From assembly GCA_964496765.1 (NCBI GenBank), contig CAZCAP010000002.1, positions 66,376 through 98,375 on the forward strand: DNA of 32,000 nt. The letters are read 5' to 3'. A program made the translations under genes and the position numbers. Shown here in pieces: positions 1,166 through 31,694 of the stretch (positions are counted from its first letter, which is position 1; every line of letters begins with the position of its first letter). The notes beneath the pieces were generated by a model. It had not been told where the DNA came from. It searched no databases and saw nothing but the letters and a program-made list of their open reading frames with translations. Source of the stretch: an uncultured archaeon (lineage in GTDB: Archaea; Iainarchaeota; Iainarchaeia; Iainarchaeales; CSSED10-239).

Positions 1166-2074
1166 TTATTTTTTGTTGTCCAACAAATATAACAACTTAT
1201 TGCTTGCTATGTATTTTGGGTTGATTTTTCTGTTTTTTCCAATAAACCCGGTATACTTTTTTGGAATTTTAATATTTTTTGTTTTTAATTTTTCAATGTT
1301 GTTAACAATCGTTTTATTATTTGACTTTTTTATTCTTTCAAGTATATAGTCATCTGTTTTATTAAAATCATCTTCCTCAATTAATTTTAATTTTATTGCT
1401 TTTTTAAGTACTTTAACGAACATCATATAGTTTATCATGTGTTTTATTCCACCCCAATGATTCTCTGCAAAATACTTATAAACACCATAAAATTCTTTAG
1501 CACTCTTTTTATTTTTGAAAACAATTTCCCCATCAACAACTGTCAGGTTCTTATATAATGTTGTAACCTTTTTTTTATCTTTTTTAAAAAATAAGAGTTC
1601 TCTTAGTGTGTAATCAATCCTATCAGCACAAAGGTCTGGTAGATTGTTTTCCAATAAAGTAAATCCCTTAAAGTCTGTTATATCTTTTATTTTATATTTA
1701 TATTTCTTTAATATCTTCATAATCTCTTTATTTTTTTTAATGTATTTTTCAAAAACATCATCCCCATGGGATTCATTATTATTGTTAATGTAATAATCAT
1801 AAACATGTGAAAAAGCTGTGTGAGATATATCATGTAATAATCCAGCAATTTGTTCCTTTATTGGAGCGCCTAACCTATCCAATAACACCATCACCCCTAT
1901 ACTATGATCATATCTCATGAATTCTACTCCATAATGCCATTCCTTAGGTAATCCTTGTTGTCTTATACCCTTAAGTCTCTGAACAGCTGGCGTTTTAATT
2001 AAATCAATAAGTACTTTTTCTTTAATCTTATGTTTTCCGTATACTGCATCTATTATTTCCATATAATCAACCAA
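1166..2074 (-). CDS. HD-domain metal-dependent phosphohydrolase (dGTPase/SAMHD1-type HD superfamily)
   Basis: YDHSIGV ... LLHDISHTAFSH ... DRIDYTLRE is the H..HD..D pattern of HD phosphohydrolases. 302 aa. Confidence 0.8.
   Translation of the reverse strand: MVDYMEIIDAVYGKHKIKEKVLIDLIKTPAVQRLKGIRQQGLPKEWHYGVEFMRYDHSIGVMVLLDRLGAPIKEQIAGLLHDISHTAFSHVYDYYINNNNESHGDDVFEKYIKKNKEIMKILKKYKYKIKDITDFKGFTLLENNLPDLCADRIDYTLRELLFFKKDKKKVTTLYKNLTVVDGEIVFKNKKSAKEFYGVYKYFAENHWGGIKHMINYMMFVKVLKKAIKLKLIEEDDFNKTDDYILERIKKSNNKTIVNNIEKLKTKNIKIPKKYTGFIGKNRKINPKYIASNKLLYLLDNKK
1177..1194 (-). repeat. 18-nt word copy A (exact)
   Basis: The plus strand reads TGTCCAACAAATATAACA. It lies in the last codons of the HD gene (read as L-L-Y-L-L-D-N) and ends 25 nt upstream of the recombinase ATG (1151). 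Confidence 0.9.
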
Positions 2075-2254
2075 ATTATTAAACCAATAATATTATGCCG
2101 AATTAATAATATAAACCTAACGCTTGTATATTTCTTAGTTTACTGGTCCATTTTCAGGTATTTAATACAAAAATAAAACCAAGGGGAGAAGGTATAAAAA
2201 GGCAACCACCTATTAATCTATAACCTTTTAATTTTTTGATTTTTTTGATTAGTT

Positions 2255-2758
2255 ATGTTTACAATATACACTGGTAACGGAAAAGGTAAAACTACAGCTA
2301 GTTTGGGGTTATTAATTAGAGCTAAGGGGGCTGGATTTAACTGTTATTTAGTTAAATTCCTAAAAAAGCAAGAAAATAGTGAAAACAGTATACTATCTAA
2401 ACTTGGAATCCCATACAAAATGTTTGGATCAAACAAATTTATTATTGATAAACCAACAAAAATAGATAAAGAAGAGGCCTCAAAAGCAATTATGTACGTG
2501 CAAAAACTAATAGATACAAAAAAAATTGATTTATTAGTTCTTGATGAAATTAATCTTCTTATTTATTATAAGTTGTTTTCAATTAGGAAAATAAAGCAAA
2601 TAATTAGTGTATGTGAAGAAAAAGAAATAGAATTAGTTTTCACTGGGAGATATGCAAGCAAAGACATTATTGAGATTGCAGATCTTGTCTCTGAAATAAA
2701 AGAAATAAAACATTATTACAATACAGGAATTAAAGCTAGAAAAGGAATTGAATATTAA
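2255..2758 (+). CDS. cobO: ATP:cob(I)alamin adenosyltransferase (CobA/CobO/BtuR family)
   Basis: YTGNGKGKTTASLGLLIRAKGAG P-loop, LVLDEIN, and C-terminal TGRYASKDIIEIADLVSEIKEIKHYYNTGIKARKGIEY all match the family pattern. Confidence 0.85.
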   Translation: MFTIYTGNGKGKTTASLGLLIRAKGAGFNCYLVKFLKKQENSENSILSKLGIPYKMFGSNKFIIDKPTKIDKEEASKAIMYVQKLIDTKKIDLLVLDEINLLIYYKLFSIRKIKQIISVCEEKEIELVFTGRYASKDIIEIADLVSEIKEIKHYYNTGIKARKGIEY

Positions 2759-2782
2759 TAAAATACATAAAAGGTAATTATC

Positions 2783-5374
2783 ATGCTCACACAAATAAAA
2801 AAAATAACTAAGGTTAAGAAAAGAACTGGAGAGACAGTAGATTTTAATAAAGATAAAATTAAACTCGCAATCTCGAAAGCAATGCTCGCAACAGACTCAC
2901 ACAACGAGCTTGTTCTTGAGTCTATTGTTGATAAAATTGTGTTAGTTCTTGAATCTAAGTTTATAAATAAGATACCTTCTGTTGAGGATGTGCAGGATAT
3001 TATCGAATATGTTTTAATTGCAAGCGAGCTTTCAACGGTTGCAAAAGCTTATATTTTATATCGTGAAGAAAGAAGAAAAGCAAGAGATAGTCAAGAAAAA
3101 ATAATTGATTGTGATTTTGTTAAAGCTCTGAAAGAAAAGGGTGTGGATTTAAGTAAGCAGGCAGTAAATGTTTTAAATAACTCCACTCAATTCGTTGATC
3201 TAGGATTAATTATATTTTTAGATAGGTATTCCCTTAAAACAAAAAGAGAAGATATTAAAGAAGGGGATTTAATTATTTGTATAACCAAGGATGATTTCAA
3301 ATATCCAAAGAAAGATATTGGTATTGTAAAAAGAATAGTTGATCATAATCTAATTTTACACATGATTACTGGATTGTATGCTGATGAAGCAAATAATTTT
3401 GAATTTACCCTAGAATTAAGTAAATGTGAAAAGCCATCAGAAGCAGTAAATGACACTTATAAAAGAGTTGCAAAAGCGGTCGCTTCTGTTGAAAAAGATG
3501 AAACTAACAAAACAAAGTGGTTTGAGGAATTCTATACCCACCTAAAGTATGGATATATATCTCCTGGTGGGAGAATACTAACAGGTGCAAGTGTTGATGA
3601 ACTTGGATATACATCTAATCTAACTTTATACAACTGCTTTGTAATTCCATCCCCTAAAGATTCCAGAAAATCAATCATCCAGGAATCAGCATATCACATG
3701 GTTGAAATATTTTCAAGGGGTGGTGGTGTTGGGATGTCCCTATCAACATTAAGACCAGCCTATGCTTACGTAATGGGTGTGCATGGAAGATCATCTGGTT
3801 CTGTTTCATGGGGTGGTTTATTTTCATTTATTACTTCTTTAATTGAACAAGGAGGTTCAAGAAGAGGGGCTCTAATGTTAATGCTTGATGATTGGCATCC
3901 TGATATTTATAATTTTATTGATTCTAAAACAAAAACAGGAATTTTAGAGCATGCAAATATATCTGTTAAGGTTTCTGATTCATTTATGGAGGCTGTTAAA
4001 AATAATGAAAATTGGAATTTAGAGTTTCCAGATTATGAGAACCCAACCTATAAAGATATATACAATGAAGAATGGGACGGGGATTTAAAAGCCTGGAAAG
4101 AGAAAGGCTATCCTGTAAAGGTTTATGGAACTGTTAAAGCAAAAGACATGTGGTTAAAAATAATAACTTCTGCTTGGAAAAGTGCAGAACCAGGAATTGT
4201 TTTCATGGAAAGATACAATAAATTAAGTAACAGTTATTATTATAATAAAATTGTTGCAACAAATCCCTGTGGAGAACAGGGACTTCCACCATGGGGGGTG
4301 TGTAACCTTGGGCACCTATATCTTGCATCTTTTACAGATAAAATTGGTGTTGATGAAATTGGTCCAGTTCATGAACTTAATTGGGATAAACTTAAAAAAT
4401 CCGCAAGAGTATTAACTAGATTTTTAGATGATGTAATTGACTTAACACCTTATTTCTTTGAAGAAAATGAAAGATTGCAAAAAGCAGAAAGAAGAATTGG
4501 TGGTGGGACTTTAGGACTTGCTGAATTATTGATTAAACTGAGAGTGAAATATGGAACACCAGAGAGTTTAAAGCTAATTGAAAAAATATATGAAACAATA
4601 ACAAGCGAGATGTATTTAACTTCTGCTTTGTTAGCAGAAGAAAAGGGTTTCTTTCCAAAATTTGATAAAGAAAAATATTTAAATGGAAGATTTGTTAGAG
4701 AACTCCCAAAAGAAGTTTTAGACAAGATTAGAGAAAAAGGTATGAGGAACGTAAGTTTAACAACCCAGGCGCCAACAGGCTCAACAGGGACAATGCTCGG
4801 AACATCAACAGGAATTGAACCCTACTTTGCATTTCAATTTTATAGGCAATCCAGACTTGGATTCCATAAAGTGAATACTCCTTTAGCTCAGGATTATGAA
4901 AAAAATGGAGTTCTTCCTGATTTCTTTGTATCTGCAATGGATTTAAGTCCAGATGATCACATAAAAGTCCAAGCAGCAATACAGAAATGGACAGATTCAT
5001 CAATAAGCAAAACCGCAAATGTTCCTGCTGATTTCACTATTGAACAAACTGGAGAATTATATATTAAAGCCTATGAACTTGGATGTAAGGGTGTAACCAT
5101 TTATAGAGACTCATCTAGAGATGAACAAGTTCTTTCAATGGATGAAAATCAAGGAAAAAAGAATGAAGAATCAACAATAAAAAAAAGAGATGAAAAAAAT
5201 AAAAAAAATAATCTAAGAGAAAAAGAACAAGCTCCAAATGAAAATGTAACCTATGGAGTAGATTCTGGAAATACCTGTCCAAATTGTAGGAAAGGTATAA
5301 TGATTAAACTTGGTGGATGCACAGAGTGTTCGCAAGGGTGTGGGTTTAAGGGTGCCTGTGATCTTAAAACATAA
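2783..5374 (+). CDS. nrdJ: Adenosylcobalamin-dependent (class II) ribonucleoside reductase
   Basis: N-terminal ATP-cone (VKKRTGETVDFNKDKIKLAISKA), active-site loop ATNPCGEQGLPPWGVCNLG, and a Lys/Glu-rich linker followed by the Cys-rich tail CPNCRKG..GGCTECSQGCGFKGAC typical of class II RNRs. The SD AAGGT lies 7 nt upstream of the start. Confidence 0.95.
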   Translation: MLTQIKKITKVKKRTGETVDFNKDKIKLAISKAMLATDSHNELVLESIVDKIVLVLESKFINKIPSVEDVQDIIEYVLIASELSTVAKAYILYREERRKARDSQEKIIDCDFVKALKEKGVDLSKQAVNVLNNSTQFVDLGLIIFLDRYSLKTKREDIKEGDLIICITKDDFKYPKKDIGIVKRIVDHNLILHMITGLYADEANNFEFTLELSKCEKPSEAVNDTYKRVAKAVASVEKDETNKTKWFEEFYTHLKYGYISPGGRILTGASVDELGYTSNLTLYNCFVIPSPKDSRKSIIQESAYHMVEIFSRGGGVGMSLSTLRPAYAYVMGVHGRSSGSVSWGGLFSFITSLIEQGGSRRGALMLMLDDWHPDIYNFIDSKTKTGILEHANISVKVSDSFMEAVKNNENWNLEFPDYENPTYKDIYNEEWDGDLKAWKEKGYPVKVYGTVKAKDMWLKIITSAWKSAEPGIVFMERYNKLSNSYYYNKIVATNPCGEQGLPPWGVCNLGHLYLASFTDKIGVDEIGPVHELNWDKLKKSARVLTRFLDDVIDLTPYFFEENERLQKAERRIGGGTLGLAELLIKLRVKYGTPESLKLIEKIYETITSEMYLTSALLAEEKGFFPKFDKEKYLNGRFVRELPKEVLDKIREKGMRNVSLTTQAPTGSTGTMLGTSTGIEPYFAFQFYRQSRLGFHKVNTPLAQDYEKNGVLPDFFVSAMDLSPDDHIKVQAAIQKWTDSSISKTANVPADFTIEQTGELYIKAYELGCKGVTIYRDSSRDEQVLSMDENQGKKNEESTIKKRDEKNKKNNLREKEQAPNENVTYGVDSGNTCPNCRKGIMIKLGGCTECSQGCGFKGACDLKT

Positions 5375-5395
5375 TAAAATGTAATTTGATAAAAT

Positions 5396-5833
5396 ATGAT
5401 TAAAGTAAAAAGATTAACAGAAAGTGCAAGACTTCCAGAAAAAGCACATGAAACAGATGCTGGGTTTGATTTATTTTCAGATGTTGACCTAGTTATTCCT
5501 CCAAAATCTAGAGGAACAGTATCTACGGGAATCACAATGGTACTTCCAGAGATACCCTATCCAATTTTTAATACTTATTTGAGAATTGCTCCTAGAAGTG
5601 GATTATCCGCAAAGAAAGGAATAGATGTTTTTGCAGGAGTAATTGATTTAGAATATAGAGGAGAACTATTAGTTTGCCTTTTCAATTCCAGTGATGAAGT
5701 GTTTGAAATAAAGAAGGGAGATAAAATTGCTCAAATAATCCCAACAATTATTTTAAATGATAAAATTCAAGAAGTAGAAGAGATAGATGACACAGAGAGG
5801 GGAGCAAAAGGTTTTGGCTCTTCTGGTCAATAA
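5396..5833 (+). CDS. dut: dUTP diphosphatase (trimeric dUTPase)
   Basis: Motifs DAGFDL, APRSGLS, GVIDLEYRGE and the C-terminal RGAKGFGSSG are present. Confidence 0.9.
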   Translation: MIKVKRLTESARLPEKAHETDAGFDLFSDVDLVIPPKSRGTVSTGITMVLPEIPYPIFNTYLRIAPRSGLSAKKGIDVFAGVIDLEYRGELLVCLFNSSDEVFEIKKGDKIAQIIPTIILNDKIQEVEEIDDTERGAKGFGSSGQ

Positions 5834-5840
5834 CCTTTCT

Positions 5841-5858
5841 TGTTATATTTCTTGGACA
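5841..5858 (+). repeat. 18-nt word copy E (TGTTATATTTcTTGGACA, one mismatch)
   Basis: Read directly. Intergenic, 8 nt after the dut stop and 116 nt before the KaiC-like start; same orientation as the flanking genes. Confidence 0.8.
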
Positions 5859-5974
5859 CTTTCTTTCTATTTTTATTTATTTAGCTTAAATAAACCTCTT
5901 TTTAAGTTTAATTTCTCCTATATTATATACAGATACTAAAATCTAATTATTAATATAAATGAGGTGTATGAATT

Positions 5975-6676
5975 ATGGAAAGAGTTCCAACAGGAGTAAA
6001 AGGTTTTGATGAATTAATCCAGGGAGGTATTCCAAAAGGTGGTACCGTTCTTGTATCAGGAGGAACTGGTTCAGGTAAAACTATTTTTGCAACAACTTTT
6101 ATTTATGAGGGTGCAAGAAAATACGGAGAACCAGGTTTAATAGTTACAGTTGAAGATAATCTAAAAAACTTTGTATGGAATATGGAAAACTTTGGATGGG
6201 ATATTAAATCTCTAGAAGAAAAAAATCTAATGAAAATATACAGAATGCACATTGATCCAAGAAAACCAGTGGAACCACAAATAGATAAGGAACTAGATAT
6301 AATCACATCAATGGTTAAAGATTTAGGGGCAGTTAGGCTCGCTGTTGATTCAACAACCGCTTTTGGTGCTTGGATGTCAGACATTGGAAAACTAAGAAAT
6401 CTTTTGTTTAGGTTTTCAGATACTCTAAAAGATTTAAATTGTACAACTGTTCTCACTGCAGAAACAAACGGTCAGGATTTTTCTGCCTATGGTGTTGAAG
6501 AATTCGTTGTTGATGGAATTTTTATGATGTATTTTATTCCTCCAAACAGATCAATGTTTGTTAGAAAACTAAGAGGAACAAGACACTCATTAACAGTTCA
6601 TCCTTGTCAGATAACATCCACAGGAGTAGAAATAAATCCAAAAGATGAAATCATGTGGAGTGCAATCAAGCAATAG
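5975..6676 (+). CDS. KaiC-like / RecA-superfamily ATPase (single domain)
   Basis: VPTGVKGFDELIQGGIPKGGTVLVSGGTGSGKT Walker A in a KaiC/RadB-like context. 233 aa. The SD GAGGTG lies 8 nt upstream. Confidence 0.8.
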   Translation: MERVPTGVKGFDELIQGGIPKGGTVLVSGGTGSGKTIFATTFIYEGARKYGEPGLIVTVEDNLKNFVWNMENFGWDIKSLEEKNLMKIYRMHIDPRKPVEPQIDKELDIITSMVKDLGAVRLAVDSTTAFGAWMSDIGKLRNLLFRFSDTLKDLNCTTVLTAETNGQDFSAYGVEEFVVDGIFMMYFIPPNRSMFVRKLRGTRHSLTVHPCQITSTGVEINPKDEIMWSAIKQ

Positions 6677-7107: not shown

Positions 7108-7116
7108 ATAATTAGT

Positions 7117-9318
7117 TTAAGCAATTCCCTTATCTTCTTGGGTTTTGCTTTTCTTATTATTTCCTTTTTTTTCTTTTTCTATTTCCATAATCTTATCAAT
7201 CGCACTATTGAAATCTTCTTTTGTTATTCTTATCTCTGATTTATCTTTTTTGTGTTCTTCAATAATAGCTCTTCTTATTGCCATCATTCCTGCTTCTCTT
7301 GCAATTGCTTCAATATCAGCACCACTAGTTCCTTCTGTTTTTTTTGCAAGCTCTTTAGGTGTTATCTTATTATCTATTTTCATGGTCTTTAAATAAACTT
7401 CAAATATTTTTTCCCTTGATTGAATATTAGGAAGAGGAACATACATTTTAATATCAAATCTTCCTGGTCTTAGGAATGCCTGATCAATTATATCAGCTCT
7501 GTTCGTTGCACCAATAATAACAATATCTTTGAGATTAGATATTCCATCCATTTCTGTTAATATTTGAGCAACCACGTTATTCTGAACACCACTTGACATG
7601 TCATTGCTTGTTCTTGTGCTTGTTATTGCATCAATCTCATCAAAAAAGATGATTGATGGAGCAAGTTGTCTTGCTTTCTTAAACAATTCTCTTATTTTCT
7701 TTTCAGATTCTCCAACCCATTTATTAAAGATCTCTGGACCCTTAACAGAAATAAAGTTCGCATTTGATTCTGTTGCAACTGCTTTTGCTAGAAGTGTTTT
7801 TCCTGTTCCTGGAGGTCCATAAAGAAGAATTCCTTTTGGAGCATCAATTCCAATATCTTTAAATAAATCTTTGTGCTTTAGTGGCCATTCAATCATTTCC
7901 TTTAATTGTTGCTTTTGTTCTTCTAGTCCACCTATGTCATTCCAAGAAACATTAGGTATTTGAACAATCACTTCTCTAATTGCACTTGGTTCAACAACAT
8001 TTAATGCATCTAAAAAATCAGTGTGTGTTATAACAAGCTCATCAAGAAGTTCTCTTGATAGGTGTTTGCTTGACTCTTTACTTATTTTTGGCATTAATCT
8101 TTTAATTGCTTTTAGTGCAGCTTCCTTACAAAGCGCATTAAGGTCAGCACCAGAAAAGCCATTAGTTAATTCAACAATTTCATTTAGGTTTACGTTTACA
8201 AGTGGCATACCTCTAATGTGTACTTGTAATATTTCTGTTCTCCCGATCCTATCAGGTATACTTATTTCAAGTTCCCTATCAAACCTTCCAGGTCTTCTTA
8301 GAGCGGGATCAACTGCTTCTGGTATGTTTGTTGCTCCAATCACAACCACATCCCCACGATTAGACATTCCATCCATTAGTGTAAGAAGCTGAGCAACAAT
8401 TCTTTTTTCTGTCTCTCCATGTATGTTCTCTCTTCTAGGTGCAATCGCATCAATTTCATCAATAAAAATAATTGCTGGTGCCTTTTCTTCTGCTTCCTTA
8501 AATATGTTTCTTAAATTTTCTTCGGATTTCCCATAAACCCCAGAAACAATTTCTGGTCCATTAATTGTTGTGAAGTAGGCATCAGTTTCTCCTGCAACTG
8601 CTTTTGCTAGAAGTGTTTTTCCTGTTCCTGGTGGGCCATAGAGAAGAACACCTTTAGGTGGGGATATTCCGAGTTTTTTAAATATTTCTGGTCTTTTTAT
8701 TGGTAGTTCAACCATTTCTCTAATTGCTTCTATTTCTTTTCTAAGACCACCAATATCATCATAGGTTATGCTTATCTTATGTGCTTGCTCTGGTTCTTCT
8801 GAAACAACTAGTTTTGTATCATCTGTTATTCTTACTGCTCCTTTAGGAATTGTTTTAGTTACAATTAATTGCAGATCTCTGTATCCATCAGCAGTGAGAA
8901 TAGGTAATCCTGGTATCTTAATCATATTATTTTCAATAATATTTTGATTAACTATTTTGTCTTTAATATACCCAATAATGTCTGAACTTAATTTTATTTT
9001 TTTATCTTTATCAATAACTGGTGCTAGGTTAACTGTGTTTGCTCCTGTACAAATCACTTTTTCAATGTAAACATCCTCATCAATTCCTGCACCTATATTG
9101 TATCTAATTAGGCCATCAATTCTTATTGTATTTAACCCAGTATCTTCCACATTTCCTTTGATTGCATAAACAATTGCTGATTTTATTCCATCTATCTTTA
9201 GAGTATCCCCTGCAGATAGCTTAAGCTTATCAAAAACAATTGGATCAATTTTAGCTATTCCTTTTCCTACATCTTTAATATCGTTTTCCTTAACAGTAAG
9301 AATTATTTTTTCTGGCAT
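7117..9318 (-). CDS. cdc48: AAA+ ATPase Cdc48/VCP (two AAA domains plus an N domain)
   Basis: Two Walker A motifs ([15 protein letters not shown]), Walker [10 protein letters not shown] and IIFFDEIDA, and a double-psi-barrel-like N domain. 733 aa. Confidence 0.95.
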
Positions 9319-9355
9319 AATTGGTTTCTCTTTTTTTAAATTTCTATATTTTTAG

Positions 9356-9373
9356 TGTCCAACAAATATAACA
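9356..9373 (-). repeat. 18-nt word copy B (exact)
   Basis: The plus strand reads TGTCCAACAAATATAACA. Intergenic, ending 37 nt upstream of the cdc48 ATG and just downstream of a hairpin (9397-9413, TTATCCT-aat-AGGATAA) plus T-run that probably terminates topA. Confidence 0.9.
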
Positions 9374-9504
9374 AAAAACACTTTATTATATTTTTGTTAT
9401 CCTAATAGGATAAGGAGGCACAGGATTAAAAGGTTTTTGGAAAAAGCTTATAAAATTTTCATAAAATATAACTAGTTTATTACTAAAAGTGAGTATTTGT
9501 ATAG

Positions 9505-11718: not shown

Positions 11719-11768
11719 TTTAATGTATCCATATATTTTGTTTATAACCCACTAGAAAAAGAAATAAA

Positions 11769-12239: not shown

Positions 12240-12259
12240 AATAACACCCTCTAGTTTAA

Positions 12260-13120: not shown

Positions 13121-14341
13121 TTACCCAAGAAGATAGTATTCTTTAGACCCATTTATCTTGATTTTTGCTATGTTTCCTAGCTTAATTTTTCCATTTTTAT
13201 TTGATTTTATAACAACAGGCAGATATTCCTCTGTTTTTCCAAGAAATTCGTTTTTGTTTGTGGCTTGTTCGTTGACTAGAACCTGTTTGGTTTGTCCAAC
13301 AAATATAACAGAATTGTTCCTTGCAATCTCTTTTGCAACCTTCGCAAGAATTCTAGATCTCTCCTTCTTAATTTGTCCGTGGAGATCCTTTAGGTTATTT
13401 GCTTCTATTCCTTTTCTTTTTCCAAATCTTGAAATATTAATTAATGGGGGTTTAATTTTTTTAATAAATTTTATTGTGTTTTCAAACTCTTTTTCTGTTT
13501 CTTCTGGAAAACCAACAATCACATCTGTTGCAATTGTTATTGTTGGGTGAACTTTTCTAAAATAATTAATAATGGTTTCAATTTCCTGCGTTTTATAATA
13601 TCTATTCATTTTTTTTAGTGTGTTATTATCTCCTGCTTGAATAGGGATGTGTAGGAACTTATAAATTTTTTTGTTTTTATATACTTTAGCAAGTTCTTTA
13701 TAAAATTTAATTAGATGTTGTGGGTTTGCCATTCCTAATCTTATTCTAAATTCACCAGGTATTTTAATTATTTCTTTAAGTAGATTTACTATGTTTGTCT
13801 TAATATCTAATCCATAGCAACCAGTGTCCTGGGCAGTAAGTAATATTTCTTTTGATCCGTTTTTTAGTGCAAATTTAGTTTCCTCTAGTATTTCCTTAAT
13901 TAGTTTACTTTTCAGTCTTCCTCTTGCAAATTTGACTGCGCAATAAGTGCATGCTCCAAGACAGCCGTTTGCAATAATTATTGCCTGAGTTATTTTTTTC
14001 TGAGATTTAATTTTACTTTTAGAAAAAATTAATTTTTTTAATTTTTTTACATCTTTTAACCCAAAATAGTTTGCTTTTGGGCACGTTCTTCTAAGTCCAG
14101 ATGAATCAATATCAACAAGACACCCAAACAATATAATTTTTTTATCTTTCGTTCCATTTTTTTTAAGTTCCTGCAGATATTTAATTATTTTAAACTCTGT
14201 TTGTTCTTTAACCCCGCAGGTGTTTATAAGAATAAAATCCGCAGAATTTATATTTTCTGTTAATATTGTATGATTGGTTAATTCTTCACTAGTTCTTTGA
14301 TTTAGAGTGCATCCAAATGTTTTAACAAATATAGTTTTCAT
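13121..14341 (-). CDS. Radical-SAM methylthiotransferase, MiaB-like archaeal type (MtaB/CDKAL1-like)
   Basis: N-terminal UPF0004 motif VKTFGCTLNQ, radical-SAM cluster CLGACTYC, and a C-terminal TRAM-like region. The SD GGTGGAG lies upstream. Confidence 0.9.
   Translation of the reverse strand: MKTIFVKTFGCTLNQRTSEELTNHTILTENINSADFILINTCGVKEQTEFKIIKYLQELKKNGTKDKKIILFGCLVDIDSSGLRRTCPKANYFGLKDVKKLKKLIFSKSKIKSQKKITQAIIIANGCLGACTYCAVKFARGRLKSKLIKEILEETKFALKNGSKEILLTAQDTGCYGLDIKTNIVNLLKEIIKIPGEFRIRLGMANPQHLIKFYKELAKVYKNKKIYKFLHIPIQAGDNNTLKKMNRYYKTQEIETIINYFRKVHPTITIATDVIVGFPEETEKEFENTIKFIKKIKPPLINISRFGKRKGIEANNLKDLHGQIKKERSRILAKVAKEIARNNSVIFVGQTKQVLVNEQATNKNEFLGKTEEYLPVVIKSNKNGKIKLGNIAKIKINGSKEYYLLG
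13293..13310 (-). repeat. 18-nt word copy C (exact)
   Basis: The plus strand reads TGTCCAACAAATATAACA. It lies inside the MiaB-like ORF on the sense strand and is read as S-V-I-F-V-G-Q. Confidence 0.9.
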
Positions 14342-18826: not shown

Positions 18827-18830
18827 TTAT

Positions 18831-19724: not shown

Positions 19725-19734
19725 AATTTCGTAG

Positions 19735-20054: not shown

Positions 20055-20528
20055 ATGATGAGAAAAATTAAAGGACAAGGTGCACTTGAATACCTTTTGT
20101 TAATTGGTGGTGCTGTTCTAATTGCTGTAATCGTTATTGCTCTTCTTGTTGGAATGGGCGGACAGTCAAGAGAAACAGCTCAAGATCAATCAACAAAAGC
20201 TCAACAATCATTAGATCAGCCACAGGCAGCAACAATCGTTAGTATAACACCAATAGATAATTGTAATGGAACTACAGGTTCTGTCACAATAAATTGGGCA
20301 AAAGTTGGAGATGGTGGTGTATATGAGTTAAGGATGTTTGATTATTCAGGAACACAAATTGGAAGTAATATCGATATAACAGATCAAAATGCATCATTTA
20401 ACCAAGCATTTGCTTCTATTGGTGGTAGGGCTTGTCAAGATTCGTTCTGGGGACAAATTATAACTTCAAAGAATGATATGACTGTAAGTTCTGCAAGAAT
20501 GAAATGGAATTGGCCATCACTAAACTAG
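20055..20528 (+). CDS. Pilin with a class III signal peptide (candidate abundant pilin)
   Basis: MMRKIKG|QGALEYLLLIGGAVLIAVIVIALLV followed by a beta-rich C-terminal domain with sequons (NGT, NAS). The SD AGGTGA lies 6 nt upstream. It has its own 134-nt AT-rich upstream region and a downstream hairpin terminator. Confidence 0.8.
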   Translation: MMRKIKGQGALEYLLLIGGAVLIAVIVIALLVGMGGQSRETAQDQSTKAQQSLDQPQAATIVSITPIDNCNGTTGSVTINWAKVGDGGVYELRMFDYSGTQIGSNIDITDQNASFNQAFASIGGRACQDSFWGQIITSKNDMTVSSARMKWNWPSLN

Positions 20529-20546
20529 TTTGAGATTTGAAAATTT

Positions 20547-20590
20547 AAAGAAATGGACTAATCTCCATTTCTTTAATTTATTTTTTTTTA
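20547..20590 (+). terminator. Hairpin plus T-run terminator after the pilin gene
   Basis: Perfect 11-bp stem AAAGAAATGGA (20547-20557) / TCCATTTCTTT (20564-20574) with a 6-nt loop, followed by AATTTATTTTTTTTT. Confidence 0.6.
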
Positions 20591-20631
20591 AAATCAAATT
20601 ATACTTATAATTTAATTTAAACGGAATAATT

Positions 20632-21072
20632 ATGTTTACTAATAATAAAAAAGCACAGGGTGCACTTGAATATCTTTTAATTATAGGTGGAGCTTTACTG
20701 ATTGCAGTTATTGCAGTAACTATAATTGTAAGTCTTGGTAGTGGTAACCGTGAAACCGTTGATGATAGTCAGCAAGGTTATCAGGAACTTGTTGATAATC
20801 AAGTTATTGCTCCAATAATAAATGATATTGAATGTTCAATTGGCACAATAACAATTTACACAGCTGGATCTCCAACCACAGGAGTTTCCAATTACAAAAT
20901 AAGTTTAGATGATGGTCTCTATGTTAATGTAACAACCATAGATATCCCAAATAGAGAAATTACTTATAATAAGGTGAGCGTAGTTGGAACAAAATATGAA
21001 GTTAGATTAGTTTCAATTAAGAATAATTTAAGATCAACACCAACACTACCTTTTGATTGTGTTGTTAAATAA
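20632..21072 (+). CDS. Pilin with a class III signal peptide (paralog of 20055-20528)
   Basis: MFTNNKKA|QGALEYLLIIGGALLIAVIAVTIIV. The N-terminus shares nucleotide identity (GGTGCACTTGAATA) with the preceding pilin. Beta-rich C-terminal domain. Confidence 0.8.
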   Translation: MFTNNKKAQGALEYLLIIGGALLIAVIAVTIIVSLGSGNRETVDDSQQGYQELVDNQVIAPIINDIECSIGTITIYTAGSPTTGVSNYKISLDDGLYVNVTTIDIPNREITYNKVSVVGTKYEVRLVSIKNNLRSTPTLPFDCVVK

Positions 21073-21082
21073 GATCCAGAAG

Positions 21083-21283
21083 ATGGGAGTTATGAATATT
21101 TTTTTAAAATTACTTAATGATAAAAAAGCACAACTCTCTGTTGAATATCTTATCATGATTGTATTTGGAATGATGCTTGTAATTACAACAGGTATTGTTA
21201 TTATTAATTTAAGTGGCCTTGTTAGTGTTGCAAAAGCAAAAATATTAACCTATAGAGATAATATACTTTCAACATTTTCATAA
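21083..21283 (+). CDS. Short pilin-like protein with a class III signal peptide
   Basis: ..LLNDKKA|QLSVEYLIMIVFGMMLVITTGIVII. The ORF-track start (TTG at 21053) overlaps the upstream gene; the ATG at 21083 or 21092 is more plausible. Confidence 0.65.
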   Translation: MGVMNIFLKLLNDKKAQLSVEYLIMIVFGMMLVITTGIVIINLSGLVSVAKAKILTYRDNILSTFS

Positions 21284-21318
21284 ATTCTAAACAACGCTAA
21301 TTACTTTGGAGTAACCCT

Positions 21319-22452
21319 ATGTTTAATTTTGCATTATATTCTTTTTTAGTTACCCTACTATTTCTATTTATTTTTTGCATATTTGATTTAAAATATAGAG
21401 AAATACCTAATTATCTTGTTCTTCTATTTTTTGGGATTGGTTTGTTATCTAGTTTAGTAATTAGTTTTTGGCTATGGCAATTTTCATATATTTTTAATTC
21501 ATTAATTTCAATTGCAATTACTTTCATTATAACCTTTATTCTTTGGGAGCTTGGTTTATTTGCAGGAGGGGATTTAAAGGTTTTTGTTGGGATTGCTGCA
21601 CTTAACCCACTAAACCTTAACTTTTTAGGTTCTGCACTTAACTTTGGAGTGGTTAAGCAACCAATATTTGGAATCACCTTAATTATCGCAAGTATATTAT
21701 CAACACTACCCTATATCCTCCTATTTACTAGCTATAAAATAATTTCTAAAAATTATTTCAAAGACCTAGTTATAACTTATTTTTCAAAAACCTACTTAAT
21801 AACTATTTTTAATTCAATAATAATTATTTTTCTAATTACCTCCTTTATGAATATTTTTTCATTAAAAACACCAACAATATTATTACTATTATTATCTTTT
21901 GTTTTGATTTTTTTATTTTCTAATGTACTTACCTATAGTAAAAAAGCATTTTATTTTTCTATCGGGATGCTTTATTTAATTTTATTTATTACGACCTGTT
22001 TATTAAAACATGTTCCTCAAAAGATTTTTTTACTTTCAAACCTTTTTTCAATAATTTTATCAGTACTAATAATTTATCTATTAATCATGATTTATAGGTT
22101 CACAAAAGAAAAAATACTTGTTGAAGAAAAAAAAGTATCTGACCTGAAAGAAGGGGATGTTACTTTATATAATTATTATTTAATTAATAAAAAAGTAATA
22201 TTTAAAAAAAGCACTTTTTTCTCTGCCATTAGAGATATGCTAACTGGAGTTTATTATAAAGACCAAATAATTGATTCTAGAAAAGCTGGTGGGTTAAATG
22301 TGAAAGAAGTTACCTTTTTAAATGAATCCCACAATAATAAATTAATAGGTAATGTAATAAAAATCAAAGTCACTATTGCATTTACTCCAGCAGTATTAAT
22401 TGCATATATCTTGCTTAATATTTTTGGAGACGTGATTTGGTTAATATTTTAA
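21319..22452 (+). CDS. A24-family aspartic prepilin peptidase (PibD/FlaK/EppA-like), long form
   Basis: Both catalytic Asp motifs are present: FDLKYREIPN (Asp23) and GLFAGGDLKVF (Asp85, GxGD type). At 377 aa it has extra TM helices and a ~100-aa soluble insert before the last TM. Confidence 0.85.
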   Translation: MFNFALYSFLVTLLFLFIFCIFDLKYREIPNYLVLLFFGIGLLSSLVISFWLWQFSYIFNSLISIAITFIITFILWELGLFAGGDLKVFVGIAALNPLNLNFLGSALNFGVVKQPIFGITLIIASILSTLPYILLFTSYKIISKNYFKDLVITYFSKTYLITIFNSIIIIFLITSFMNIFSLKTPTILLLLLSFVLIFLFSNVLTYSKKAFYFSIGMLYLILFITTCLLKHVPQKIFLLSNLFSIILSVLIIYLLIMIYRFTKEKILVEEKKVSDLKEGDVTLYNYYLINKKVIFKKSTFFSAIRDMLTGVYYKDQIIDSRKAGGLNVKEVTFLNESHNNKLIGNVIKIKVTIAFTPAVLIAYILLNIFGDVIWLIF

Positions 22453-22464
22453 ATGTGAAAAATT

Positions 22465-22929
22465 ATGAATTTAAGTAGAAAAGGACAAATTGCAATTGAA
22501 TATATTATTTTTATAGCCATATTCTTATTATTTTTTCAAGCAGTGATTAAGCCATCTATTGATTTTGCAGAAAATATAATGAGTGATGTTCAATCTATTG
22601 CTATTACCCAAGAAAACGTAAGTAGGCTTGCTGATGGTGTTAGTTCCTTTGCATCATCTATGGGGACTGGAAAGGTAACCATGAATTTGTATTTACCAAA
22701 GAATGCAACAATTACGGATTGTAGTTCTAGTGCAATTACCTATACTATAACTATCTCTAACGTAAATCCGAAACCAGCTGCCTGTAATAATACTAATTTT
22801 TGCGAATTTACAAAAGCAATATTTATTGGTAGTCACGATATTACCTGTGATTTAATAGGGCCTGGTTTTACAGGAGACGTACTTATTGAAAAACAAGCCA
22901 CAGGAGATTTTGATGTTTCAATCAAGTAA
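22465..22929 (+). CDS. Pilin-like protein with a class III signal peptide (minor pilin candidate)
   Basis: MNLSRKG|QIAIEYIIFIAIFLLFF. The C-terminal domain has 4 Cys and several N-x-S/T sequons. Confidence 0.7.
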   Translation: MNLSRKGQIAIEYIIFIAIFLLFFQAVIKPSIDFAENIMSDVQSIAITQENVSRLADGVSSFASSMGTGKVTMNLYLPKNATITDCSSSAITYTITISNVNPKPAACNNTNFCEFTKAIFIGSHDITCDLIGPGFTGDVLIEKQATGDFDVSIK

Positions 22930-23266: not shown

Positions 23267-23279
23267 ATGGTGTGTGTAA

Positions 23280-26124: not shown

Positions 26125-26194
26125 ATCTATCCCTTTTTAATTATTCTTATTATCAAACAGTTTAAGAATTATTTTGTTTTATATATTCTTGATT

Positions 26195-26593
26195 ATGAAT
26201 AAACTTATCTCTGATTGGAGTATATATCTTGATGTTCTAGAATCAATAATGGAATTTTCAAAGAGTTTTTATCCTCTTGAGTTCTCTGGAATTTTATATT
26301 GTGATCTTGAAAAAAAGATTATAAAAGATATTTACATTCTTCCTGGAACTCAGAGTGGGAGAACAAGTGCGGTGCTGCGAATGGACCTTGCACCCATGAC
26401 CTTTAATCTAGCTGGATCTGTTCATTCTCATCCATTAGGGTATGGAGAAGCATCTAATGCAGATTTAAACTTTTTCTCAAGCAAGCAGGTAAATATAATC
26501 GCCTATCCTCCATTTTCTCTAAATTCCTATAGGGTTTATAATAAACAAGGAAAAATTATTGAGTTACTAGTGATTTCTAGACCAAAAACGTGA
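26195..26593 (+). CDS. JAMM/MPN+ metalloprotease, minimal stand-alone form
   Basis: EFSGILY (Glu) and HSHPLGYGEASNADL (H-x-H-x7-S-x2-D). The ORF-track TTG at 26174 is less likely than the ATG at 26195. Confidence 0.8.
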   Translation: MNKLISDWSIYLDVLESIMEFSKSFYPLEFSGILYCDLEKKIIKDIYILPGTQSGRTSAVLRMDLAPMTFNLAGSVHSHPLGYGEASNADLNFFSSKQVNIIAYPPFSLNSYRVYNKQGKIIELLVISRPKT

Positions 26594-26750
26594 TTTAGTA
26601 GATAGTTTTATAAACGTTTCCGGAAAGGGTTTTATTTCTTTTGGAAGATATATTAATTTAGTTGTAGGGTCATTATTTATTTTTAATAAAAATAGTTTTG
26701 ATTTTCTTAGAATTAGATTAAATTTTATTACAGCTATTAGTGTGGATATT

Positions 26751-27263
26751 ATGGATGAAACAAAAAAACAAGAAGAAAAAGAAGAAATTGTTGAACAAAC
26801 AATAGACCAGAAAGAGGATGTGGTTGAGTCCCTAACCAAAAAAATACAGGATTCCTTGGAACAGCTAAAAAGAACACAGGCTGACTTTATTAATTACAAA
26901 GCCAGGGTTCTAAAGGACACACAAGATCTTGTATTTTTACAAACAAAAGAAATTGCTCTGGAGTTAATTGCATTTAAAGAATTAGTATTAATTTCAATGA
27001 AGAATGAGGAACATGATGAAACAAAAAAAGTACTTTCTTTATTACTTGAAAAAATAGATAATTCTTTATCAAGATTAAATATAACTAAGATTATTTTGAA
27101 GGATAATATTCCAGATTATAATCTTTGCGAGTGCATAAATACAATCAATGTAACTAATAAGGAAGATAATAACAAAATAATAGAAATAATCGAAGATGGA
27201 TACTTATACAATAAAAAATTAATTAAACCTATAAAAGTAGTTATAGGTAAATTGGAGGAATAA
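26751..27263 (+). CDS. grpE: Nucleotide exchange factor GrpE
   Basis: LKRTQADFINYKARV coiled-coil motif, position immediately upstream of dnaK, and appropriate size. ATG at 26751 (the ORF track begins at GTG 26742). Confidence 0.85.
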   Translation: MDETKKQEEKEEIVEQTIDQKEDVVESLTKKIQDSLEQLKRTQADFINYKARVLKDTQDLVFLQTKEIALELIAFKELVLISMKNEEHDETKKVLSLLLEKIDNSLSRLNITKIILKDNIPDYNLCECINTINVTNKEDNNKIIEIIEDGYLYNKKLIKPIKVVIGKLEE

Positions 27264-29096
<1,833 letters not shown>

Positions 29097-29134
29097 TTTC
29101 TTCTCCTATTTATTTTTTTTGGACATGAAAGAAT

Positions 29135-30310
29135 ATGGCAGAAAAAGACTTGTACAAAATACTTGGAGTAAATAAAAACGCAAGTATTGATGATATAAAA
29201 AAAGCATATAAGGAGCTTGCAAAAAAATATCATCCAGATATAGCTGGACCAACTGCTGATGCAGAAAAATTCAAAGAAATAAGTAATGCCTATTCTATAC
29301 TTTCTGATTCAGAAAAAAGAAAACAATATGATACCTTTGGAGAAAACATTGGATCTGGTGGTCAAGGATACAATTACTATGGAGGCCAAGGCTTTGGTGG
29401 TGGTTTTTCACAGGGCTTTGCAGGATTTGATTTTAGAGATATCTTCTCTCAGTTTATGGAAGAAGAAGAAGATGATGAAAATGGTTTTTTTAGAAGATTT
29501 ACTGGTGGAGGAAGAACCAGAAGATCAAGAAATCAACAGGATTTAAATCTAGTTTATAGAATTGAAGTTGATTTTAAAACATCCTACACTGGTGGTAAAG
29601 AAAGATTAGAAATTTATAAAGAAGGATTATGTTCTTCTTGTTCAGGAAGTGGTTCAGTATCTGGGAAGAGAGCAATTTGTGATTCTTGTCATGGAAAGGG
29701 AAGAGTAGTTACTTCAAGAAGAACACCCTTTGGAATGTTTTCTGTTCAAACAACCTGTTCTAAATGTAATGGAGAGGGCGAAATAATAACAGATCCCTGC
29801 AAAAGCTGCTCTGGAAAAGGTTATGAAAAAATTAAAAGAACAATTTCTGTGGATATCCCTGCTGGTATTTCTGAAAACGATGTTATTAGAGTGCAGGGAG
29901 AAGGAAATGAAAGAGAGCATGAAAAAGGAGATCTTTATTTAAAAATAAGTGTTAAAGAAAATACTTTCTTTAAACGTGAGAAGAATGATCTCTATTGTGA
30001 TGTCCCCATAACATTCACTGATCTAATCCTTGGGACTAGTTTTAAATTAAATTTATTTGGTAATCTTGTAAAAATTAAAGTTCCTAGTCACACCAAAGCT
30101 AACACAATTATAAAGATGAAGGGGGATGGGTTTGTGGATGTTAAAGGTGGTGGAAGACCAGGTTCTTTATTTGTTAGATTAATTCCAGAAATTCCAGAAA
30201 AAATGAATAGTGAGTATAAAGATTTAATAAAAAATCTTTCAAAAATAGAAGAATCAACAATAAAGAAAGAAATAAAGAAAAAATATAGTGAATATATTGT
30301 TGATGACTAA
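29135..30310 (+). CDS. dnaJ: Hsp40 co-chaperone DnaJ (type I)
   Basis: J domain (DLYKILGV..KYHPD), a G/F-rich region, and four CxxCxGxG zinc motifs (CSSCSGSG, CDSCHGKG, CSKCNGEG, CKSCSGKG). Confidence 0.95.
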   Translation: MAEKDLYKILGVNKNASIDDIKKAYKELAKKYHPDIAGPTADAEKFKEISNAYSILSDSEKRKQYDTFGENIGSGGQGYNYYGGQGFGGGFSQGFAGFDFRDIFSQFMEEEEDDENGFFRRFTGGGRTRRSRNQQDLNLVYRIEVDFKTSYTGGKERLEIYKEGLCSSCSGSGSVSGKRAICDSCHGKGRVVTSRRTPFGMFSVQTTCSKCNGEGEIITDPCKSCSGKGYEKIKRTISVDIPAGISENDVIRVQGEGNEREHEKGDLYLKISVKENTFFKREKNDLYCDVPITFTDLILGTSFKLNLFGNLVKIKVPSHTKANTIIKMKGDGFVDVKGGGRPGSLFVRLIPEIPEKMNSEYKDLIKNLSKIEESTIKKEIKKKYSEYIVDD

Positions 30311-30356
30311 ATAATGCACTAAATACCTTTTTATTGTTTTCTAACATAATATATGT

Positions 30357-31694
30357 ATGTCTAATTATAAGCAAGAAAAATCAAGTTCTTTCTTTATTAA
30401 AAAGATAAATAATAAAGAAATTAAGGTACTTGCAAGCAAAACCCTATTTTCTAAGATCCCTTTTTCTGCATTTGAACAACTTGAATCTATTTCTTTGATT
30501 AAAGAAGTTGAAAGTCCAATTATTGCTCATCCAGATATTCAACCAGGATTTTCTGTTCCCATTGGAACTGTTTTTTTAAGTAATGCAAAAACAGGAATTA
30601 TTTCCCCATCAGCAATTGGGTTTGATATTAATTGTGGAATTAGATTAATTAAAACAAATTTATTTTTAAAAGATATTTCTAAAGAGCAACTTTTATCTCT
30701 TAAAAATGAACTAACTAAACTTCCTCTTGGTTTGTCTAAAAAAGGAATGAAGATAACTAGAAAGGATTTAGACAATATATTAAATAATGGAATTAATTGG
30801 TGTGTTTCTAAAAAAATGTGTTCAAAGGAGCACTCTAAAAGAATAGATATGGGGGGATGCTATGCAGGAGCAAGTTCTTCTTTTGTTTCCAAGGAAGCAA
30901 AGGAACTTGGGCTTCTTGAGCTTGGAACGCTAGGGGAAGGTAATCATTTTATTGATGTTCTTATTGTTTCTGATATTTGTAATAAGTCTCTTGCGACTAA
31001 ATATAAACTTAAGAAAAATCAAATAATAATTTTAATTCATAGTGGCTCTCGTGGTCTTGGGCACAGAGTAGCAACAGACTATAATAAGCTATGTGAAAAT
31101 AAACATCCTTTTACATATACTAAATTTAATTCTAAGATTGGACAAGATTATTTTAAAGCAATGAAGGCAGCAGGAAATTTTGCCTTTGTTAATAGAGAGA
31201 TTCTTTCAAAACAAATACAATATATATTTTCTGTTATATTTGTTGGACACTCAAAAGTGAAATTAGATCTCATTTATGATCTTTGCCATAACACTGCAAC
31301 TCTTGAAAAAATAAAAGGTAAAGATTATGTGGTTCATAGAAAAGGCGCAACCCTTTCAACAAAAGGGAACCCAATTATCTTACCAGGTTCAATGCTTGAC
31401 TATAGTTATTTATTATCTCCATCAACAGGCATGAAGCAAACACATAATACCTTTCCTCATGGATTAGGAAGAAGTTTATCAAGAAGCATAGCTAAAGAAA
31501 AAATAAATATTAAAGATTTAAGAAAATTAATGCTGGACAAGGGAGTTCTTCTTGGTGGAAGAAGTGAAGGAGTAATGAGAGAGGAACAACCAAATGCTTA
31601 CAAATCTTCAAAAGAGATTATTTCAATAATCGAAAAATCCAAACTTGCAAAAAAAATAGTTTCATTTAAACCAATAATTGTTTTAACAGGATAA
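30357..31694 (+). CDS. rtcB: RNA 3'-phosphate ligase RtcB
   Basis: GFDINCGIR, GEGNHFIDV, HSGSRGLGH and CHNTA metal/GMP-binding motifs. Confidence 0.95.
   Translation: MSNYKQEKSSSFFIKKINNKEIKVLASKTLFSKIPFSAFEQLESISLIKEVESPIIAHPDIQPGFSVPIGTVFLSNAKTGIISPSAIGFDINCGIRLIKTNLFLKDISKEQLLSLKNELTKLPLGLSKKGMKITRKDLDNILNNGINWCVSKKMCSKEHSKRIDMGGCYAGASSSFVSKEAKELGLLELGTLGEGNHFIDVLIVSDICNKSLATKYKLKKNQIIILIHSGSRGLGHRVATDYNKLCENKHPFTYTKFNSKIGQDYFKAMKAAGNFAFVNREILSKQIQYIFSVIFVGHSKVKLDLIYDLCHNTATLEKIKGKDYVVHRKGATLSTKGNPIILPGSMLDYSYLLSPSTGMKQTHNTFPHGLGRSLSRSIAKEKINIKDLRKLMLDKGVLLGGRSEGVMREEQPNAYKSSKEIISIIEKSKLAKKIVSFKPIIVLTG
31232..31249 (+). repeat. 18-nt word copy D (exact)
   Basis: TGTTATATTTGTTGGACA on the plus strand inside rtcB, on the sense strand, read as S-V-I-F-V-G-H. 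Confidence 0.9.

Follow-up and report, generated by a model that had tools for sequence, protein, structure and literature searches.

An asymmetric 18-nucleotide (nt) word occurs five times in the window, as the whole 32,000-nt stretch of DNA analysed here is called (positions 66,376 to 98,375 of contig CAZCAP010000002.1), a segment of archaeal chromosome with about 30% GC. The observation is real and the word is under strong selection; it is specific to one clade of the DPANN archaea and lies outside any described family of repeated genomic words. Its features suggest an undescribed marker of gene boundaries that acts in concert with the transcription machinery. That the word acts at the level of DNA, as a signal coupled to the direction of transcription, is on balance probable; a polar barrier to polymerases, the more specific mechanism proposed below, is possible rather than probable.

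The word in the window and across the clade

A search of the window at up to three mismatches returned four exact copies, one copy with C in place of G at position 11 (G11C) and no further site; the chance expectation is 0.12 (100 dinucleotide shuffles, maximum 2). The original prediction, made from the letters of the window, had listed the same five copies at the same coordinates and judged their number to be beyond chance, and both points were borne out; the reading frames, peptides and distances to starts and stops that it gave were all correct on recheck. Copies are regularly spaced, at about 4 kb, both in the window and in lineage locus L127, but the two form one syntenic block and the pattern is hence no independent evidence.

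All five copies are in sense orientation to the genes around them. The first, exact, at 1177..1194 (minus strand), occupies the last codons of an HD-domain gene, where it is read as LLYLLDN (the peptide at the copy is ASNKLLYLLDNKK, followed by the stop), 11 nt from the end of the stop codon. It ends 25 nt ahead of the ATG of xerA (300..1151, minus strand), the gene of an archaeal chromosome-dimer-resolution tyrosine recombinase (NF040815 equivalog, 279 bits against a cut-off of 220), and it is kept at the orthologous position in L051, L052 and L127 with the ATG 24-30 nt on; xerA, directly downstream, is context and no demonstrated partner. The G11C copy, at 5841..5858 (plus strand) in the gap between the dUTPase and KaiC-like genes, starts 7 nt past the dUTPase stop and is followed by T-rich runs, with the KaiC-like gene 116 nt on; its orthologues in L027, L137 and L127 lie 7-9 nt past the dut stop, the downstream gene differing. 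The exact copy between topA and cdc48 (9356..9373, minus strand) is 37 nt from the cdc48 ATG, a distance of 19 nt in its orthologues in L027 and L150. A sequence resembling a TFB-recognition element (BRE) and TATA box, CCAAAAACCTTTTAAT (9425..9440, minus strand), lies about 55-65 nt upstream of this copy, is kept in the same two lineages, and probably places the copy in the 5' untranslated region (UTR) of cdc48. Two further exact copies are found well inside genes: that at 13293..13310 (minus strand) spans codons 344-350 of a MiaB-like (MtaB-type) gene (SVIFVGQ), directly precedes the TRAM domain and leaves 172 nt to the gene end, with orthologues in L088 (exact) and L150 (a T3C variant), and that at 31232..31249 (plus strand) spans codons 292-298 of rtcB (SVIFVGH), 445 nt from the gene end. 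The 106-kb source contig (ena:ERZ27248937:k141_943951) holds one extra exact copy, which follows a tRNA-Met gene some 2.5 kb to the left of the window, and no copy in the 8.5 kb right of the window, which makes six copies per about 50 kb (the window, about 10 kb to its left and the 8.5 kb to its right).

The core of the word is nG[T/C]TATATTTnTTGGACA. Fifteen of its 18 positions are all but invariant, and variation is confined to position 1, position 3 (T, at times C and in rare cases A) and position 11 (G or C, in a few cases A). A TATA-type A/T octamer, set between G2 and position 11, is fused to an invariant TTGGACA. Among 628 kb of lineage loci, which were picked by presence of the word (L161-L169 excepted), 61 exact copies were counted together with 45 of one mismatch (nearly all G11C), 7 of two and 8 of three (null 3). 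At orthologous sites the word stays exact and the surrounding sequence diverges. The flanks of the window copies are unrelated, agreeing weakly at most, and over 96 non-redundant copies only a C at +1 (44%) and a T at +2 (65%) stand out. Chance and local duplication were ruled out by the shuffles, the unrelated flanks and the clade-wide recurrence. As had been claimed from the window alone, the copies are not remnants of miniature inverted-repeat transposable elements, insertion-sequence ends or duplications, nor are they repetitive extragenic palindromes: apart from the unrelated flanks, the only end symmetry is TGT...ACA, and the rtcB copy arose by substitutions, without an insertion or deletion.

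Purifying selection acts on the nucleotides of the word, as shown by rtcB. The copy there is exact in eight lineages (the window and seven more), down to 64% RtcB identity, and synonymous sites are fixed in 5 of 5 cases within the word versus 4 of 24 in flanking codons for conserved residues (about 1e-4). Distant RtcB proteins have xTLN(I/L)GQ at the site of the clade's SVIFVG(Q/H), and because the ancestral peptide thus differs with no indel, the word was written into this variable loop in situ by substitutions; intermediates are TGATATATTTGTTGGACA in the lineage with the 977-kb genome and AGCAATATTTGTTGGACA at 55% identity. Coding copies are read in two frames, as VIF(V/L)G and as LLY(L/F)LD, so the constraint is not on the protein. 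The earlier view that conservation resides in the nucleic acid and not in the protein is thus upheld both by the two frames and by the fixed synonymous sites.

Recurrence outside the window, which the original prediction had put forward as a check, was observed genome-wide and clade-wide. In a scan of one genome per species (185,579 genomes, 596 Gb, query TGTTATATTTSTTGGACA), "archaeon ELA007" was the sole metagenome-assembled genome with multiple copies, 16 on 14 contigs, and the 37 single matches in unrelated organisms correspond to chance level (expectation about 0.06-0.36 per Gb). A metagenome scan gave at least 108 loci, and about 90 of the matches listed were on contigs of low-GC relatives; one contig of 977 kb (Ga0074198_1000002) has at least nine copies, eight of the matches listed spanning 38 kb to 768 kb. 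Counterparts at orthologous positions, with diverged flanks, exist in ELA007 for four of the five window copies and in other lineages for all five. Density ranges from 1 per 8 kb (source contig) down to 1 per 100 kb, the syntenic 20-kb loci L167 and L168 having the rtcB copy only (1 per 20 kb), and about 10-15% of genes have the word. RtcB relatives at 50-55% identity are named Candidatus Iainarchaeum or just "archaeon", and by them the organism belongs to the DPANN archaea. In the searched literature the word and its complement were absent, and searches there on DPANN promoter motifs and archaeal uptake sequences turned up nothing relevant. The sole match in the viral collection, L160 (IMG/VR UViG_3300026484_000595), is the same as L098 (Ga0256837_1000225), position 7692; it is the reverse complement of the word in coding frame (MGAPCPTNITQW) and probably a chance match or a misclassified cellular contig.

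Orientation and siting relative to genes and promoters

Orthologous copies were grouped by hand, because clustering of flanks by k-mers chained unrelated AT-rich sites together. About 41 groups run along the gene direction and 6 against it (p = 2e-7), in agreement with the predicted co-orientation. From the raw calls of open reading frames (ORFs), 34 intergenic copies were co-oriented with both neighbours and 4 opposed to both, and coding copies were 31 sense and 12 antisense; several of the antisense coding matches are probably due to chance, being read as (L/V)SKKYN in an ABC ATPase or Trm5-like protein or lying on unrelated-looking contigs. Strand composition explains a two- to three-fold orientation bias at most. 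Within the window the orientation switches between neighbouring copies, always with gene direction and on a scale of 4-10 kb, and the copies of the 977-kb contig likewise follow the local genes; since the flips accompany genes inside the window, orientation is tied to transcription and not to replichores.

The position of the word is biased toward the ends of genes. The upstream gene is the nearer in 19 of 23 co-directional intergenic groups, and 11 of the 23 have the word no more than 21 nt (2-21 nt) after the upstream stop or RNA 3' end (5.6 expected, p = 0.004); in only four is the next start as near as that (p = 0.91). Of about 13 coding groups, five have the word in the last 15% of the gene. 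Where neighbours differ between lineages, the word is mostly kept with the upstream gene (dut, tadA, tRNA-Met, F70 and F12). By manual groups, convergent gaps have a roughly proportionate share and divergent gaps are under-represented, the opposite of what promoters would give. Reversed copies are few and are mostly found in back-to-back pairs with a normal or slightly degenerate copy; close pairs occur at three independent loci, all of them back-to-back with spacers of 28-33 nt and none face-to-face. The copies are followed by the genes for Cdc48, XerA, FKBP, a DsbA-like protein, PurF, S6e, L7Ae, an OGG-like protein, a metallo-beta-lactamase (MBL)-fold protein, a PIN protein, a nuclease, tRNAs and RNase P RNA; Pfam annotation revealed no common theme among downstream genes, and a coherent regulon was therefore rejected.

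The distance from TATA box to start was calibrated within the lineage as 22/23 nt, from RNase P RNA, which has TTTAAATA 22-23 nt ahead of the 5' end of helix P1, and from one leaderless gene, that of a hydrolase, which has AAAACC-N3-TTTAAAAC with 22 nt to the ATG. Set against this spacing, the siting of the word varies from place to place. It is upstream of the TATA box by 26-27 nt at the RNase P RNA site (4-19 nt past the preceding stop codon), and upstream of the CCCAAAAC-TATTATAA promoters of the FKBP and PD-(D/E)XK nuclease genes by 5-28 nt. At cdc48 it is downstream of a conserved promoter-like sequence, AAAAACC-TTTTAAT, and at the DsbA-like gene (L121, L159 and L093) it covers the predicted start site, a conserved TATA box lying 14-15 nt upstream of the word. 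The true ATG of the MBL-fold gene, a start backed by the codon substitution pattern, is 3-5 nt past the word. The tRNA(GCTTCTG...) gene begins 15-17 nt past it, and a word-free lineage has a TATA box at the equivalent place. After tRNA-Met, in four lineages, the word is found 45-68 nt past the terminator, where it forms an isolated patch of conservation in a gap of 400 nt. The FKBP copy (L078, L092) sits between two divergent promoters mapped by sequence, those of the leaderless hydrolase gene and FKBP, and a back-to-back pair occupies the divergent gap beside the nuclease gene; judging from these promoters and the tRNA-Met terminator, the copies at all three places are probably untranscribed in sense. 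Overall, start codons or RNA 5' ends are 3 to >480 nt from the word with no preferred distance, and its geometry relative to start codons and promoters is not fixed.

The archaeal RNase P RNA gene itself (L154:3211-3480, plus strand; orthologues in L084, L141 and L158) was found by alignment; it scores 57.5 bits (Rfam gathering score 84; E = 1.9e-15), and default annotation misses it in this AT-rich lineage. The Rfam match, together with helix P1, sets its start site. Just upstream of the cdc48 copy, near the predicted start site, is a dyad, TTATCCTATTAGGATAA (9374-9413, minus strand), which is partly kept in L027 and L150 and may be a separate operator or a hairpin. An apparent series of distances from word to downstream TATA box (6, 18, 29 and 41 nt), which would have indicated helical phasing, is broken by the PurF site at 21 nt, and a promoter model built de novo by expectation maximisation yielded a motif too weak for scoring orientations.

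A sense terminator or processing site was rejected on account of the copies found in 5' UTRs, in the 25 nt between the apparently co-transcribed HD and xerA genes, ahead of tRNA and inside essential genes. The word also contains no run of five T, the oligo-T of an intrinsic terminator; such a run lies within 40 nt past the word in 17 of 53 copies, against 17% of controls. No single promoter or terminator role suits all contexts.

A possible polar boundary and its rivals

The best reading, which we hold tentatively, is that of a boundary element of double-stranded DNA, bound by protein and dependent on orientation. The word would be a clade-specific cis-signal, read as duplex DNA by a highly specific protein or complex. 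Polymerases travelling in the sense direction would pass through the site, hence the tolerance, in sense only, of copies in 5' UTRs, between cistrons and inside genes. Its preferred place would be the 3' boundary of a gene, often right ahead of the next promoter, where as a polar boundary or insulator it would halt polymerases coming the wrong way, whether antisense, reading through from a convergent gene or firing divergently from the next promoter; a reversed copy back-to-back with a normal one would close the unit both ways. Such a DNA-bound element, traversable in sense, would explain the sense-only orientation, the siting at 3' edges and before promoters, the copies in convergent gaps and the back-to-back pairs. 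That orthologous sites have now G and now C at position 11 is, in addition, easier to reconcile with duplex DNA than with RNA. We infer all three components, namely recognition of DNA rather than RNA, binding by protein and polarity. That a DPANN group possesses a dedicated, highly specific DNA-binding factor together with an 18-bp asymmetric polar transcription boundary, placed at gene ends and in coding sequence, is, as a complete picture, rather improbable.

Several considerations weigh against the boundary. Polar transcription barriers are not known from archaea and no binding protein was identified, which sets the prior low. A protein over the probable start site of the DsbA-like gene or in the 5' UTR of cdc48 would be expected to repress, whatever its polarity, and it is not obvious why barriers in mid-gene, for example at 65% of rtcB, should be strongly selected. 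The tRNA(GCTTCTG...) site, where the octamer appears at the place of a TATA box, favours promoter activity there, and some rearrangements keep the word with the downstream gene (FKBP, DsbA-like gene). To be counted on the same side are that gene calls followed a longest-ORF heuristic, that the ortholog groups were assigned manually, and that promoters and start sites were assigned from sequence and conservation alone. A small ORF resembling ribbon-helix-helix proteins and flanked by two copies was considered as the binding factor and rejected, having no Pfam support and being truncated in some lineages.

The rival nearest at hand is a specialised promoter or operator module of a large regulon, the first hypothesis of the original prediction, in which TBP would sit on the TTATATTT octamer and a TFB paralogue or a regulator on TTGGACA, and which would act as core promoter, upstream activating site or operator according to position. 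We consider it unlikely. It is consistent with the TATA-like octamer, with the co-orientation of word and downstream gene and with the existence of back-to-back divergent pairs; moreover, the tRNA gene 15-17 nt past the word puts the octamer at -31 to -24, the place of the TATA box in the word-free lineage, an ATG lies 19-37 nt downstream at xerA, cdc48, the DsbA-like gene and others, and several copies are 3-40 nt upstream of canonical TATA boxes, as an activator site would be. The hypothesis fits the pre-tRNA site, xerA and the divergent pairs, but as a general rule it fails. Four groups, that of the MBL-fold gene included, have a start codon 3-8 nt past the word, the spacing from Shine-Dalgarno sequence to word differs by 16 nt among orthologues, copies stand before canonical promoters, those in convergent gaps have nothing to drive, and at least eight conserved copies are 120-890 nt inside genes, with some at depths of 450-740 nt; the bias is to upstream stops and not to downstream starts, and divergent gaps are under-represented. 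The fixed distance of a core promoter from TATA box to start (about 22-25 nt) is seen at the tRNA(GCTTCTG) site alone, and a BRE upstream of the TATA box is not seen: the upstream flank is unconserved, and the sole conserved G/C block is downstream of the octamer. The side of the TATA box on which the BRE lies sets the direction of firing; the BRE of the lineage is thus missing and the block is on the wrong side for forward firing. The downstream genes are functionally heterogeneous, and 15 invariant positions of 18 is far stricter than in ordinary archaeal promoters or operators. A further rival is a promoter firing in reverse, in which the reverse complement, TGTCCAA-n-AAATATA-r-CA, would serve as BRE plus TATA box and give antisense transcripts from gene 3' ends; in a variant, the word would hold a non-productive TBP/TFB complex. 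The two together are very unlikely. Their appeal lies in the arrangement of conservation as 7 + 1 variable + 7, with the variable base at the BRE/TATA junction, in the resemblance to the CCCAAAAC-TATTATAA promoters of the lineage and in the siting at 3' ends, which would yield full-length antisense RNAs; yet about 85% of copies would become antisense promoters of no evident purpose, the close pairs would become face-to-face promoters 28-33 nt apart, an unnatural arrangement, no conserved initiator or proximal element is present at the predicted start, and the gene opposite FKBP, in the divergent arrangement, is already served by a promoter of its own.

An element acting in sense transcripts, the site of an RNA-binding protein or guide RNA that would define or stabilise transcript ends between cistrons, is possible, as had been suggested, and of low probability. 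The strict sense orientation in 5' UTRs, coding regions, 3' UTRs and tRNA leaders, the placement 2-21 nt past stop codons, the variable geometry to start codons and a compact, AT-rich genome with many co-directional genes would all suit it, and base-by-base recognition would give the exactness of the word. It is weakened by the copies between divergent mapped promoters and past the tRNA-Met terminator, which are probably untranscribed in sense, and by the G/C swap at position 11, which suits duplex DNA better than RNA recognition or base pairing; the word is limited, furthermore, to about 10-15% of genes. No conserved RNA structure was seen at the copies, and Rfam 15 gave no family match over any copy in the window and 43 related loci at gathering thresholds, the matches near copies being only tRNAs, rRNA fragments and, at a relaxed threshold, RNase P RNA. 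Pairing with rRNA was rejected, there being no complementarity beyond that of shuffled words in the 3' 777 nt of 16S and 461 nt of 23S; so was a hidden non-coding RNA starting at the word, the sequence right after it being unconserved (as in the tRNA-Met gap) and no Rfam match overlapping a copy. A recombination site or hot-spot, whether recognised by XerA or a different recombinase or serving as 18 bp of microhomology, that would insert and delete genes in the manner of attC is a further reading to which we assign little probability. An alpha/beta-hydrolase paralogue lies between two direct copies in L092:1379-2313, where L113:867 has a single copy; an ORF of 61-102 aa that separates geneX from the DsbA-like gene has a copy on either side in L091:1200-1466, L022 and L093 and is absent in L076, which has one copy (L076:1190); and the gene content past the dut copy differs in three lineages. 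Gene adjacency is less often preserved across word-bearing gaps than across word-free ones of comparable length (a noisy statistic of non-independent comparisons), one copy abuts xerA, and GTTGGAC matches GTTRRRY, the integron core-site consensus. Against this, the word has no dyad symmetry or second binding arm, the recombinase is the housekeeping XerA, copies in essential genes arose by point substitution, and synteny is kept around most window copies, with no inversion seen between inverted ones; its similarity to the Pyrococcus abyssi dif site is limited to TTATAT (PMC2958812). The word may double as a hot-spot of recombination; alternatively, each new unit may require its own boundary copy. 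The most improbable of these readings by our estimate, and hardly credible, is a genome word like those for DNA uptake, Chi or the FtsK-orienting polar sequences (KOPS), upheld by biased DNA uptake or a strand-reading translocase. Exactness, occurrence in coding and intergenic DNA, origin in situ in a variable protein loop, restriction to a clade and a type IV filament locus in the window are in keeping with it, and the part of the earlier claim that stands is that the word is over-represented and oriented. Its orientation, however, tracks genes over several flips in 32 kb and not replichores, whereas Chi, KOPS and architecture-imparting sequences would switch only at origin and terminus; uptake sequences are not known to have a strand bias relative to transcription, and a density of 1 per 8 kb to 1 per 100 kb is too low.

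Apart from the word, the genes of the window encode XerA, the HD protein, ribonucleotide reductase, dUTPase, the KaiC-like ATPase, Cdc48, topoisomerase I, an Lrp/AsnC regulator, the MiaB/MtaB-like enzyme, RFC, the type IV filament locus, GrpE-DnaK-DnaJ and RtcB. Four type IV filament ORFs (20060-22514) share a family of 45-nt repeats that corresponds to the class III signal peptide and pilin N-terminus of ordinary pilin paralogues, and the internal direct repeats of cdc48 (7452-8759; 121-211 nt, about 71% identity, 819-825 nt apart) are the AAA+ domains D1 and D2. To the left of the window, L163:15453-19720 holds a bacterial-type MutS/MutL pair in a DPANN genome, beside a cluster of three tRNA genes, and L163:13219-13480 (about 2-3 kb from the window), like L039, L149 and L127, has six conserved GTAATTAC palindromes and an ACC-TTTATAAT promoter upstream of an unannotated gene of 206-210 aa, probably the operator array of an autoregulated transcription factor. 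Elsewhere, a 233-aa ORF resembling an integrase fragment (L063:10037-10738, minus strand) overlaps the 3' end of a tRNA gene and may represent an integrated element.

Significance and comparison with known systems

DPANN archaea are uncultured or hard to culture, and their transcription punctuation is almost unexplored. Accidental TATA boxes abound in AT-rich genomes of archaea, and the containment of spurious and antisense transcription there is a standing question. Selection on the word has been strong enough to replace three amino acids in the essential RNA ligase RtcB; the word is hence a concrete, testable handle with about 100 natural sites per genome. Any mechanism implies a factor of unusually high sequence specificity, which might find use in marking the lineage or as an orthogonal tool for binding DNA or RNA.

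The DNA uptake sequence of Neisseria (DUS) and uptake signal sequence of Pasteurellaceae (USS) are, like the word, exact and clade-specific, occur in coding and intergenic DNA and in tolerant protein segments, and often follow genes. DUS and USS have a density of about one per kb, a figure that the word does not approach, being 10-100 times rarer, and the word differs from them further in its strict orientation by genes. Near-identical oriented words in dozens of copies, some within upstream genes and at variable distance from start codons, are also known as the promoters of single-subunit RNA polymerases (T7-like phages, the yeast mitochondrial nonanucleotide), but the copies in convergent gaps and deep in genes do not fit; no such polymerase was seen in the lineage DNA covered, and none is known in archaea.

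Among recombination sites, integron attC is likewise co-oriented at the 3' end of genes, GTTGGAC fits its core site and there are two indels with direct copies of the word at their ends; with Xer/dif the link is the xerA gene adjacent to one copy. An attC site spans 57-141 bp as an imperfect inverted repeat (R''-L''...L'-R') and folds into a hairpin when single-stranded, but the flanks of the word hold no partner arm that is conserved; dif has two inverted 11-bp arms with a 6-bp spacer, usually once per chromosome, whereas the word has 8 of 18 positions self-complementary and many copies. The dif site of P. abyssi is ATTGGATATAATCGGCCTTATATCTAAA, in which TTATAT is the sole stretch in common with the word (PMC2958812). 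Unlike both, the word is conserved over 18 bp only, without inverted-repeat architecture, and is dispersed among conserved core genes, in some cases by point mutation inside them.

With the archaeal BRE/TATA promoter the word shares an A/T octamer flanked by G/C, a reverse complement like CCCAAAAC-TATTATAA and, at one tRNA gene, the canonical distance; it differs in having no fixed distance to the start, the G/C block downstream of the octamer, a stricter conservation and copies upstream of, inside and after transcription units. The dodecamer of yeast mitochondria (bound by Rmd9) and the sites of chloroplast PPR10 are short, exact and sense-oriented, belong to AT-rich compact genomes and are placed after stops or between cistrons, as is the word; they are read base by base, on RNA, whereas several copies of the word are apparently untranscribed in sense, a minority of genes has it and no helical-repeat RNA-binding protein was identified.

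The boundary proposed here has its closest models in the Sal box of rDNA, bound by TTF-I or Reb1, the sites of mTERF, and Tus-Ter. These differ from the word in belonging to eukaryotes, organelles and bacteria, in being confined to few loci as against 20-120 sites that include coding regions, and in having known binding proteins; the polarity of the word comes from orientation statistics only. They are alike in being asymmetric, nearly invariant over about 18-23 bp and dependent on orientation, and in their siting at the 3' ends of transcription units and just upstream of promoters. If the reading is true, the word would be an archaeal counterpart of the logic of Sal-box/TTF-I, mTERF or Tus-Ter, curbing pervasive transcription genome-wide in an AT-rich genome saturated with TATA boxes.

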